Below, one piece after another: positions 50,915 to 53,363 of a stretch of 64,000 bases of DNA. A program made the position numbers and the translations under genes. The notes under the pieces were generated by a model. That model worked only from the letters and a program-made list of their open reading frames with translations. It was not told where the DNA came from and ran no database searches. The stretch is taken from assembly GCF_024700885.2 (NCBI RefSeq), contig NZ_CP117016.1, one strand, 5' to 3'. The stretch comes from Escherichia coli. Lineage in GTDB: Bacteria > Pseudomonadota > Gammaproteobacteria > Enterobacterales > Enterobacteriaceae. Position 1 is the stretch's first letter; each line of letters starts with the position of its first letter.

Positions 50915-50922
50915 AGATATGC
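50915..50922. repeat. 8-bp target-site duplication AGATATGC (left copy) of IS66-family insertion
   Basis: Identical 8-mer flanks both ends of the element (50915-50922 and 53356-53363). Confidence 0.7.
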
Positions 50923-50959
50923 GTAAGCGTGCAGCAAGAACCGTATTGACGGGGATGTG

Positions 50960-52477
50960 TTATTCAGTCGGCAGTGCTACGCGCCAGGGGAGCAGTTCGC
51001 CGACCCGGTTTATCGGCCAGTCGGCTATGACGTCAAGGACATAGCGGAGGTAGCTTTCTGGCTCCACTCCGTTCAGTTTGCACGTCCCGATCAGGCTGTA
51101 CAGCAGCGCTCCCCGCTCTCCTCCATGATCCGAACCGAAGAACAGGTAGTTTTTGCGGCCCAGACTGACCATCCGCAACGCATTTTCAGCGATGTTATTG
51201 TCCGCCTCAGCCCAGCCATCATCTGCATAGTACGTCAGCGCCGGCCACTGGTTCAGGGCGTATGCGAACGCTTTCGCCAGTTCTGAGTGTCGCGACAGGG
51301 TTTTCATCTTTTCACGCAGCCAGCTTTCCAGGGATTTCAGCAGCGGTTTCGTTTTCAACTGACGTTCGGCAAGGCGCTGCTCCGCCGTCATTCCCCTTAT
51401 CTCTGCCTCGATGGCGTACAGTTCGCCGATCCGTTTCAGCGCTTCCTCCGTCAGGGCTGACGGGGTACGAACGTGCACATCGTGGATTTTACGGCGGGCG
51501 TGAGCCCAACAGGCGGCTTCCGTTATCCGGCCATCCCGGTACAGCTCGTTGAACCCGGCGTATGCATCCGCCTGCAGTACACCACTGAACCCCGCAAGAT
51601 GGGTCTGCGGATGGATGCCTTTTCTGTCCGGGCTGTAAGCGAACCACACCGCCGGCGCCTGCGTTGACCCGGCGTTACGGTCGTCACGAACGTAGGTCCA
51701 TAACCGCCCGGTCTTCGTTTTCTTATTAGGCGTGTCATCAGCATGGAGCTTACCGTCAGTCAGCACATAGTCCTGAAGCGCCTCTTCCAGCGGAGACAGC
51801 AGCCGGCAGCATGCATCCACCCAGCCCGACAGCAGTGAACGGCTCAGCTCCACACTTTGCCGACCGTATATTTCTGACTGGCGATACAGCGGGGTGTGCT
51901 CTGCATACTTCGAGGTCAGCACGCGGGCCAGCAGCCCCGGTCCGGCGATACCCCGCTCGATGGGCCGTGAAGGCGCGGGGGCCTGCACGATGGCATCGCA
52001 CTGAGTACAGGCATGCTTTTCACGTACAGTCCGGATAACCCGGAAGGCGCTGCGCATCAGCTCCAGCTGTTCGGCGGCATCCTCACCCAGATAGCTCAGC
52101 GAGCCTCCACATTCCGGGCAGCATGACGCTGCCGGCAGCAGCCGTTTTTCATCGCGGGGGAGTGATTCGGGGAACGGTTTGCGGGTGCGGGTTTGACGCA
52201 GCGGGCGCTGCACGGCCGGGTCGTCAACCCGACCGGTAAGGGTATCACTTTCTTTCTGAAGTGCCTTCAGGTCAGCTTCCATCTGTGCGATACGACGGGA
52301 GACTTTTTCGGAGCAGCTGCCGAAGTTCATCCGGCGCAGCTTATCCAGCTGTGCCTGCAGATGGTCTATTTCGCGTTCACGCTCGTTCAGCTTTTCCAGC
52401 AGGGCACGGTTCAGCGCCTCCTGTTCGGCAAGGAGACGTTTCAGTGCATTGATATCGTCAGGAAGTGAGCTGCTCAT
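50960..52477 (-). CDS. IS66-family transposase TnpC (Orf3)
   Basis: 505 aa; CCPECGG zinc-finger-like motif, typical IS66 Orf3. Confidence 0.85.
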
Positions 52478-52525
52478 ACCGGGTATATTACCAGGCTCAT
52501 TCAGCGTCGACCAGGATAAAGAGGC

Positions 52526-52873
52526 TTACAACATAGTCAGGGACGTAAGCAGTCTTTTAGGCTGCCGCCAGTCGATACCTTCCAGCAGCATCGCCAGCTG
52601 TGCCGGTGTGAGGAACACTTTGCCATCCCGGGCTGACGGCCAGGCGAAGCGGCCGTGCTCCAGCCGTTTGGTCAGCAGACACAGTCCATCGCCGGTAGAC
52701 CAGAGGAGCTTTACCTGACTGCCATTACGCCCACGGAAGATAAAAACGTGACCTGACATCGGATCGTCTTTCAGCGTCGTCTGCACCTTTGCCGCCAGGC
52801 CGTTGAAGCCGTTTCTCATATCGGTGATGCCAGCGACCAGCCAGATCTTTGTCCCTGATGGTAATGGGATCAA
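52526..52873 (-). CDS. IS66-family accessory protein TnpB (Orf2)
   Basis: 115 aa [31 protein letters not shown]... typical IS66 Orf2. Confidence 0.85.
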   Translation of the reverse strand: MIPLPSGTKIWLVAGITDMRNGFNGLAAKVQTTLKDDPMSGHVFIFRGRNGSQVKLLWSTGDGLCLLTKRLEHGRFAWPSARDGKVFLTPAQLAMLLEGIDWRQPKRLLTSLTML

Positions 52874-53274
52874 CGTTTGAGCTCCCGTATCAGCAGGTTC
52901 AGGATATTTTCGCTGATGGCACCATTCAGACGGAGTGATCCGTGCCGGAACGTCACTTCACAGCTGATATTGAGTGATTCAGGTGTCGCAGCTGCTACAG
53001 GTTGTGACCGGGGGGAGGTTGTAGGGACAACATCTTCGGCATCAAGTGTTATCGGGAGCAGCTCAGGCACGTTGTTTTCTGTTGTTGAAGGAGGACGTAG
53101 TTTTCCTTCGCGCCAGTACTGGCGCCACTTGAACAGCAAATTATCGTTGATCCCATGCTCACGAGCGAGTTGCGCTACGGAGATCTCTGGTCGATGCGAG
53201 AGTTCAACCATTTTGATTTTGAACTCAACGGGATAATTAGGGCTTTTTTTACGCACTGCAGTTAATGATTTCAT
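52870..53274 (-). CDS. IS66-family accessory protein TnpA (Orf1)
   Basis: 134 aa, overlaps Orf2 start by 4 nt (ATGA). Confidence 0.8.
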
Positions 53275-53355
53275 GGATAGCGTCCACCATATTTGGTGTC
53301 CACTATTCTCTCAGGAATTTCAGGATCTGCCAGACGGTGCTGAGACGACGCTTAC

Positions 53356-53363
53356 AGATATGC
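53356..53363. repeat. 8-bp target-site duplication AGATATGC (right copy)
   Basis: Matches 50915-50922. Confidence 0.7.

Follow-up and report, generated by a model that had tools for sequence, protein, structure and literature searches.

A shared ISEc22 insertion at a DUF905 start codon in a CP4-type Escherichia coli island

The window analysed here is a 64-kb stretch of the Escherichia coli MLI114 chromosome. In the PGAP annotation a T6SS cluster is followed by a CP4-type module, and this in turn by kps capsule genes. The module encodes YfjI, a GTPase, Ag43, a YeeR-like protein, IrmA, DUF905 and DUF932 proteins, an antirestriction protein, RadC, a DUF987 protein and CbtA. Its K-12 homologues (CP4-6, CP4-44 and CP4-57) conventionally go by the name of cryptic prophages. 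An earlier note on this DNA, made from the sequence alone, had spoken of a prophage gene. The module does resemble a CP4-type cryptic-prophage island, but PGAP annotates no phage structural genes anywhere in the window, and so the term applies only loosely. Between irmA and the DUF905 gene lies an insertion sequence (IS), which is the subject of this report (Table 1). Rfam and tRNA scans at the insertion point found nothing.

Table 1. Features at and around the insertion, in order of position in the window
Feature	Coordinates	Strand	Evidence and remarks
irmA	50385..50840	+	Pfam IrmA, 127.8 bits; PGAP annotation; operon in PMC4807369
Intrinsic terminator after irmA	50865..50902	+	12-bp stem at 50865-50893, then TTTTTATTT
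Original DUF905 Shine-Dalgarno (SD), AGGAG	50905..50909	+	Anti-SD duplex -7.4 kcal/mol; cut off from its gene by the IS
Target-site duplication, left copy	50915..50922		AGATATGC; ATG 50919-50921 inside; single copy in the REL606 empty site
Junction ORF, 41 codons (predicted)	50919..51044	+	ORF listing; original SD and ATG now followed by IS sequence; overlaps the 3' end of tnpC in antisense
ISEc22 derivative (IS66 family)	50923..53355	-	2433 bp; megablast and empty-site boundaries; canonical copies 2454 bp
Terminal inverted repeat, tnpC-proximal end	50923..50948		Begins GTAAGCGT; end-to-end comparison
tnpC, DDE transposase	50960..52477	-	505 aa; the 512-aa ISEc22 protein has V251-G257 in addition
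In-frame 21-bp deletion point in tnpC	51727..51728		Plus-strand GCCTGGCAACAGCACCGGGAC of other ISEc22 copies absent here
tnpB, IS66 accessory protein	52526..52873	-	Pfam TnpB_IS66, 130 bits; NCBIfam IS66_TnpB, 120 bits
tnpA, IS66 accessory HTH protein	52870..53274	-	Pfam HTH_Tnp_1; NCBIfam IS66_ISRel24_TnpA, 82.8 bits (cut-off 74)
Terminal inverted repeat, tnpA-proximal end	53330..53355		Ends ACGCTTAC; end-to-end comparison
Target-site duplication, right copy	53356..53363		AGATATGC; DUF905 start codon 53360-53362 inside
DUF905 gene, 77 aa	53360..53593	+	Pfam DUF905, 64 bits, residues 8-74; same start in PGAP; WP_001119719.1; without SD
Intrinsic terminator after DUF905, ahead of DUF932	53615..53652	+	Fold of 53615-53644, -22.6 kcal/mol, z = -5.9

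The Pfam and NCBIfam matches bear out the earlier assignment to the IS66 family with its tnpA, tnpB and tnpC genes. The three genes follow one another on the minus strand, as is required of an IS66 element, and tnpB overlaps the tnpA stop by 4 nt. TnpC has a DDE_Tnp_IS66 domain (PF03050, 337 bits) together with PF13005, PF13007 and PF13817 (zf-IS66, LZ and IS66_C). It scores 451 bits against NF033517 (cut-off 180), and the DDE domain is present though seven amino acids are deleted.

In megablast searches the element is 100% identical to MLI114 only, and 98.6-98.7% identical over its full length (2433 against 2454 bp) to copies annotated as 'ISEc22 family'. That label is the PGAP/NCBI annotation of 2454-bp E. 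coli copies, and the identity given here rests on those copies. In the ISfinder convention isoforms share roughly more than 95% protein or more than 90% DNA identity, and the element lies within this range of the PGAP-labelled copies. Sequence comparison identifies the element as ISEc22, an unremarkable IS66-family insertion sequence of E. coli that has been catalogued before.

Read from the sequence, the left edge is ...CAGGAGAAAAC AGATATGC / GTAAGCGTGCAGC... (50915-50922/50923), and the right edge is ...GACGACGCTTAC / AGATATGC CGGGTT... (53355/53356-53363). The two tips match perfectly over GTAAGCGT and agree at about 17 of the outermost 26 positions, which makes the terminal repeats imperfect. 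The octamer occurs six times in the window and is not rare in itself; by chance, the 8-mers next to the two IS tips would agree at all eight positions with a probability of 4^-8. Strain REL606 has an empty-site allele, an exact 45-nt junction with one AGATATGC. Because this site carries a single copy, the octamers stem from duplication of the target, and the possibility that they belong to the IS, which the earlier note had named as its refutation, is contradicted. The same comparison with the uninterrupted locus fixes both ends of the element and agrees with that note in three respects, i.e., the 8-bp duplication, the start codon inside the duplicated octamer and the SD left behind at the other end. 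At least 80% of a 1-kb reconstructed empty site is held by 2129 genomes. Other ISEc22 copies are flanked by different 8-mers.

Counted from its left junction, the insertion is shared by 92 of 5426 complete genomes. For example, MS 21-1 has ISEc22 at the same site, in the same orientation and with the same duplication, and exact right junctions are also seen, e.g., in SaT040. Queries of 400 and 80 bp across the right junction gave 169 and 166 genomes, but these counts are inflated because the search joined pieces up to about 540-700 bp apart and so also picked up a separate ISEc22 insertion inside irmA; the left-junction count is used instead. This second insertion is independent and lies about 430 bp upstream in the same orientation, at a target that shares ACAGATA, and is found in about 74 genomes. 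The ST131 matches that extend 11 bp into the flank at first suggested this site with a deletion on its upstream side; their sequence (flank ACAGAAGG) revealed a different insertion, in a DUF7828 gene. Neither the identity with ISEc22 nor the sharing of the insertion by 92 complete genomes, nor the 21-bp deletion in tnpC, had been part of the earlier note.

ISEc22 has a measurable target preference. It is weak and palindromic, N-N-W-Y-R-W-N-N, and the target AG-ATAT-GC matches the preferred W-Y-R-W core. This preference and the nearby irmA insertion would fit a hot spot, in which independent ISEc22 insertions into the same octamer gave rise to the 92 filled alleles or, at a minimum, to those of MLI114 and MS 21-1. 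We regard such an origin as very unlikely. The preference is so degenerate that recurrence with identical position, duplication and orientation is improbable, and the site was seen only once among 63 unique metagenomic junctions. Moreover, the MLI114 and MS 21-1 copies differ by 11 SNPs in 2.4 kb, and the flanks differ by 23 and 10 SNPs per 1.5 kb. The divergence of the IS tracks that of the flanks and is no higher, as expected for one inherited event. We infer that the insertion is inherited rather than strain-specific and that it goes back to a single ancestral event.

A literature search on the target-site specificity of IS66 elements found nothing. We propose tentatively, as a suggestion somewhat short of even confidence, that a previously unremarked palindromic ISEc22 preference for (G)N-W-Y-R-W-N(C), which has a flexible pyrimidine-purine step at its centre, may steer the element towards AT-rich regions of translation initiation, AGATATGC being an example. 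In the irmA-DUF905 segment, ACAGATA-containing targets would have taken at least two independent hits with the element in one and the same orientation, both insertions being present in dozens of lineages.

In empty-site alleles the AGGAG lies 9 nt before the DUF905 ATG. In the filled allele the anti-SD pairing ahead of the gene falls from -7.4 to -2.7 kcal/mol, and because of this loss the insertion probably silences DUF905 translation, although an ATG without an SD may retain some. The 41-codon ORF that opens at the left junction is predicted to be a meaningless by-product. As the earlier note had observed, an intrinsic terminator sits just left of the insertion; with its T-run it has a folding energy of -21.7 kcal/mol (z = -6.4), and none of 200 shuffles was as good. 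The gap between this terminator and the DUF905 SD is too short for a promoter.

One could also imagine that the IS activates or remodels DUF905, either from an outward promoter at its tnpA-proximal end or through a 106-aa fusion protein that starts at 53273. The frame is indeed open from 53273 to 53593, through the IS end into DUF905, and the DUF905 coding sequence is intact and identical between filled and empty alleles. However, a gene of only 234 nt would be expected to stay intact by chance at such divergence. SD complementarity is absent at both ATGs (-2.7 kcal/mol for DUF905 and +0.6 kcal/mol at 53273), and a consensus scan of 50300-53800, which a weak outward promoter could escape, found no plus-strand sigma-70-like promoter. 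Activation or fusion is therefore extremely improbable in our view, and silencing is the preferred reading.

The presumed effect on the genes further downstream is a different matter. According to the earlier note, the insertion cuts off the string of DUF932, antirestriction, radC and yeeT genes from upstream expression signals. In its full form this proposal makes the insertion polar on DUF905, DUF932, antirestriction, RadC, DUF987 and the toxin-antitoxin genes, all of them normally read from upstream. The downstream genes are all co-oriented with short gaps, and the promoter scan found no canonical promoter in front of DUF932. Nevertheless, the claim is unsupported, and we consider polarity unlikely. 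The agn43-yeeR-irmA operon stops at the terminator upstream of the insertion point, and published RT-PCR in EC958, whose allele may be filled or empty, found no co-transcription of irmA with the downstream genes (PMC4807369). DUF932 is preceded by a strong SD of its own (-8.5 kcal/mol), and the downstream genes that are pseudogenes in MLI114 (55846-56529 and 56540-56908) also show variable disruption in strains with an empty site, e.g., REL606. Since strong terminators bracket DUF905 on both sides, little effect beyond DUF905 would be expected.

The MLI114 copy itself has changed. A pairwise comparison of its tnpC with that of MS 21-1 gives 21 gap columns, and the deletion is private to MLI114, which is the sole full-length megablast match above 98.7%. 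This uniqueness rests on the full-length search, as a 70-bp query across the deletion was uninformative, two 35-bp pieces being joined. Conservation across the family was taken from a search of representative sequences, the homologue search alone having given only close relatives at 75% identity or more. The catalytic residue D247 is invariant in 88 of 88 diverse homologues, and D247, D311 and E438 are each conserved in at least 86. Among the deleted residues, V253 is conserved in 63 and L254 in 73 of the 88, and not one homologue has three or more gaps within positions 251-257.

In an AF2 model of TnpC (pLDDT 92), residues 243-255 form beta1 of the RNase-H-like core. As modelled, the loss of V251-G257 strips beta1 of its outer half and takes away part of the beta1-beta2 hairpin, next to the catalytic D247. 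Because the lost residues lie beside an invariant aspartate, the deletion probably disables the transposase, and the MLI114 copy would be non-autonomous, able to move only with TnpC provided in trans by another ISEc22. The shortened hairpin could re-form in register, and thus the loss of activity is not certain. In megablast the MLI114 chromosome has five IS66-like places.

Taken together, these results suggest the following history, which as a whole we consider very probable. ISEc22 would have transposed once, in an ancestor, into the AGATATGC that spans the start codon of the DUF905 gene, and staggered cutting followed by repair would have duplicated this octamer. The original SD and one ATG would thereby have been stranded at the left end, opening the short junction ORF into the IS. 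The intact DUF905 would have kept the right-end ATG, now behind IS-end sequence and with neither a usable SD nor a detectable outward promoter. The most likely consequence would be the loss of DUF905 translation and little else. The filled allele would then have been inherited until it reached its present distribution, and in the MLI114 lineage the copy would later have lost 21 bp of tnpC. The ends of the element, the duplication, the identity with ISEc22, the sharing among genomes, the deletion, the two terminators and the drop in SD complementarity are direct observations, whereas DUF905 silencing, loss of transposase function and the single ancestral insertion are inferred from them.

The insertion can serve as a lineage marker, and beyond annotation it has little significance. 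Two points are modestly useful. The natural seven-residue deletion next to a catalytic aspartate offers a means of examining what the beta1-beta2 hairpin does in an IS66-family transposase, and there is statistical support for a weak, palindromic preference of ISEc22 in its targets. Neither alters the understanding of IS66 elements.

In conclusion, the MLI114 insertion is a routine IS polymorphism of an already known kind in a CP4-type E. coli island. Its three genes, its termini and the 8-bp length of its duplication recur in other ISEc22 copies, whereas the MLI114 element is 21 bp shorter, its TnpC lacks seven residues and it differs from the MS 21-1 copy by the SNPs noted above. ISEc8 and IS679 of EHEC and EPEC share the tnpA-tnpB-tnpC architecture, the GTAAGCG termini and the 8-bp duplications, with TnpC about 89% identical, but at about 88% nucleotide identity they are distinct insertion sequences. 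All three IS679 genes are reportedly needed for transposition. IS66 of the Agrobacterium Ti and At plasmids, the family prototype, has the same TnpC domain set and also duplicates 8 bp of its target (Machida 1984, cited by PMC6778807). However, it is distant in sequence and lives in a different host, and the three IS66 duplications given in PMC6778807 are not all YR-centred. Finally, an insertion published in 2016 in the same island module is likewise a case of an IS altering the expression of neighbouring genes. That IS lies between agn43 and yeeR and abolished IrmA production, whereas the MLI114 ISEc22 lies past the operon terminator, where only the DUF905 start region is affected.

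The DUF905 gene, which encodes a 77-aa protein, is separated from its ribosome binding site by a copy of ISEc22, an insertion sequence (IS) of the IS66 family. In agreement with the earlier note, which described a tnpA-tnpB-tnpC element of about 2.4 kb, this copy is 2433 bp long in the window sequence, and both Pfam and NCBIfam models recognize the products of the three genes; that of tnpC scores 451 bits against NCBIfam transpos_IS66 (cut-off 180). Both tips begin with the same perfect GTAAGCGT, and an end-to-end comparison finds about 17 identical bases among their first 26.

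Features of the ISEc22 insertion and its surroundings (window positions; junctions from the window sequence)
Feature	Position	Strand	Description
T6SS-1 cluster	~1-34500	-	complete
tssK	31066-32404		annotated frameshifted
IS102 sRNA	44571-44807	+	RF00124, 72.5 bits
YeeR-like gene	47787-50309	+	840 aa
First terminator	50865-50893		plus T-run; -21.7 kcal/mol, z = -6.4
Left junction	50915-50922		...TTATCAGGAGAAAAC-AGATATGC, then GTAAGCGTGCAGC... from 50923
41-codon ORF	50919-51044		runs into IS
tnpC	52477-50960	-	505 aa; Pfam DDE_Tnp_IS66, zf-IS66, LZ_Tnp_IS66, IS66_C
tnpB	52873-52526	-	115 aa; 4-nt overlap with tnpA; Pfam TnpB_IS66; NCBIfam IS66_TnpB
tnpA	53274-52870	-	134 aa; Pfam HTH_Tnp_1; NCBIfam IS66 TnpA model
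Right junction	53356-53363		...GACGACGCTTAC up to 53355, then AGATATGC, then CGGGTTACAC...
DUF905 gene	53360-53593		intact
Second terminator	53615-53644		-22.6 kcal/mol, z = -5.9
'Antitoxin' gene	55846-56529		pseudogene
YeeU/CbeA-type antitoxin gene	56540-56908		internal stop
CbtA-family toxin gene	56998-57375		intact
DUF4942 gene	58166-58579, 60983-61144		split by ISEc10
istA (ISEc10)	58671-60166		frameshifted
istB (ISEc10)	60163-60918

The octamer AGATATGC that abuts both tips is not rare in itself, since it occurs six times in the window where 1.8 copies are expected, and it could in principle have belonged to the IS. However, when the empty site was rebuilt in silico by removing the IS and one octamer copy and keeping 500 bp on each side, many complete genomes matched this 1-kb query contiguously at 99.2-99.4% identity, and 2129 genomes covered 80% or more of it. 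For example, REL606 has the exact 45-nt junction with AGATATGC present once and the irmA and DUF905 genes adjacent. In addition, the 8-mers next to other ISEc22 copies are unrelated ones. The 8-mers here are the target duplication that had been proposed and lie outside the IS, so the outcome that the note named as a refutation is not seen; the empty site explains why the octamer sits exactly at both tips.

The insertion lies between the Shine-Dalgarno (SD) sequence and the start codon, as originally described. In the empty allele, the ATG of DUF905 (Pfam DUF905, 64 bits) is inside the octamer, 9 nt past AGGAG. In the filled allele, the SD and one ATG are left behind on the left side, where they open the 41-codon ORF, and the DUF905 gene is directly preceded by IS-end sequence; its product (WP_001119719.1) is identical in filled and empty alleles. 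The predicted anti-SD pairing for DUF905 falls from -7.4 to -2.7 kcal/mol with the insertion. Translation from an in-frame ATG at 53273, within the IS, would yield 106 aa, but this ATG lacks an SD (+0.6 kcal/mol), and a promoter scan of 50300-53800 found no plus-strand sigma-70-like promoter. We infer that translation of DUF905 would be largely lost.

The insertion was also suggested to uncouple the DUF932, antirestriction, radC and yeeT genes from upstream signals, and this part is unsupported. The intrinsic terminator noticed just left of the insertion is indeed there; it is strong, and it closes the agn43-yeeR-irmA operon, as defined by Moriel et al. 2016 (PMC4807369), only 12 nt ahead of the SD. 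Between DUF905 and DUF932 lies another strong terminator, and DUF932 has a strong SD of its own (-8.5 kcal/mol). Moriel et al. 2016 (PMC4807369) reported from RT-PCR in EC958 no sign that irmA is co-transcribed with the genes after it. In strain 042, an irmA promoter was placed in the yeeR-irmA spacer (PMC9431211). The YeeR-like membrane protein of this characterized operon, encoded between the Ag43 gene and irmA, had no Pfam domain in a Pfam search.

The tnpC gene of this copy, which PGAP does not mark as a pseudogene, differs from that of every other full-length copy in that 21 bp (GCCTGGCAACAGCACCGGGAC) are absent between 51727 and 51728; no microhomology is visible at the deletion. The protein consequently lacks V251-G257, and a 23-residue stretch is reduced to 16 residues. 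In an alignment of 88 diverse IS66-family transposases (33-53% identity), D247 is invariant (88/88), and T249, V253 and L254 are conserved in 85, 63 and 73 of them, respectively; none has three or more gaps in the V251-G257 segment. D311 (87/88) and E438 (86/88, within a DNNxAE motif) likely complete a DDE triad with D247. An AlphaFold2 model of the 512-aa TnpC (pLDDT 92) has an RNase-H-like core, in which beta1 (243-255) bears D247, beta2 spans 260-271, D311 is just past beta4 and E438 is on helix 435-447. In this model, the deleted segment comprises five residues at the outer end of beta1 together with half of the hairpin turn. A shortened hairpin might re-form in register; nevertheless, the transposase is probably inactivated.

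The window is identical to the chromosome of E. coli MLI114 (NZ_CP117013.1; human stool, Mali). No other record matches the IS at 100% over its full length (megablast), and PGAP marks this IS and its neighbouring genes there too. The next-best full-length matches (98.6-98.7%) are 2454-bp elements named 'IS66-like element ISEc22 family' by PGAP. MS 21-1 has a full-length ISEc22 with the same site, orientation and duplication as the window, and the filled allele is present in 92 of 5426 complete genomes (400-bp left-junction query, covered in one piece). Right-junction counts of 166-169 are inflated because nearby pieces were joined, so that an ISEc22 insertion inside irmA was also counted. MLI114 and MS 21-1 differ by 11 SNPs and one 21-bp gap in the IS, and by 23 and 10 SNPs per 1.5 kb in the flanks; as the IS has diverged no more than its flanks, this fits a single inherited insertion event.

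The irmA-internal insertion is an independent one, about 430 bp upstream; its orientation is the same, and it has the duplication AGATACGA (1239-1246 and 3701-3708 of the EH2252 locus; window ~50489-50496). Its target has ACAGATA in common with that of the window, and about 74 complete genomes (166 minus 92) appear to carry it. Many metagenome contigs have ISEc22 with unlike 8-mers at its two ends, for example the DUF905 right junction with the left flank GAATCAGC; such contigs result either from chimeric assembly across the repeat or from IS-IS recombination.

The target sites display a pattern. Of 22 independent left-end flanks (17 from a single Escherichia sp. genome), 18 have a pyrimidine-purine step at positions 4-5, the centre of the 8-bp target (background 0.254, p = 5e-8), and 13 have W-Y-R-W there (background 0.062, p = 6e-11). 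The same bias, though weaker, is found in an independent set from metagenomes, 63 unique right-end junctions (YR centre 31/63, p = 4e-5; W-Y-R-W 17/63, p = 2e-7), with a mirror pattern: G is found at position 3 in only three and C at position 6 in none, and position 1 is enriched in G and position 8 in C. The target preference of ISEc22 is weak and palindromic, (G)N-W-Y-R-W-N(C), and we found no description of it in the literature. The window target, AG-ATAT-GC, agrees with it. No functional targeting of the start codon need be assumed: the best explanation for the landing is chance combined with a mild preference for cores that are AT-rich and bendable, as is common in translation-initiation regions.

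The earlier note called DUF905 a prophage gene, but the locus is no true prophage; the window annotation places the gene in a CP4-type island module (YfjI, GTPase, Ag43, YeeR-like, IrmA, DUF905, DUF932, antirestriction, RadC, DUF987 and the CbtA toxin system), which follows the T6SS-1 cluster (Tle1/Tli1) and precedes the kps capsule genes, near which the window ends. A tRNA scan of the 64-kb window found none. The sole Rfam match, the IS102 sRNA, is between the GTPase and Ag43 genes, as in K-12 CP4-44. Another gene of the island, that for DUF4942, is likewise disrupted by an IS, the IS21-family ISEc10 (58166-61144 region). Both antitoxin genes are broken and the CbtA toxin gene is intact, so the latter looks like an orphan toxin. 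The T6SS-1 cluster includes a Tle1/Tli1 effector-immunity pair; the tssK frameshift may inactivate the secretion system.

ISEc22 is a catalogued element named in several genome papers, and the window's copy is about 88% identical to ISEc8. Overall, the observation in the note is confirmed and its core reading is right. The feature is already known as an IS, annotated at a position common to many genomes; the tnpC deletion private to this copy and the statistics on target preference add little to this picture.
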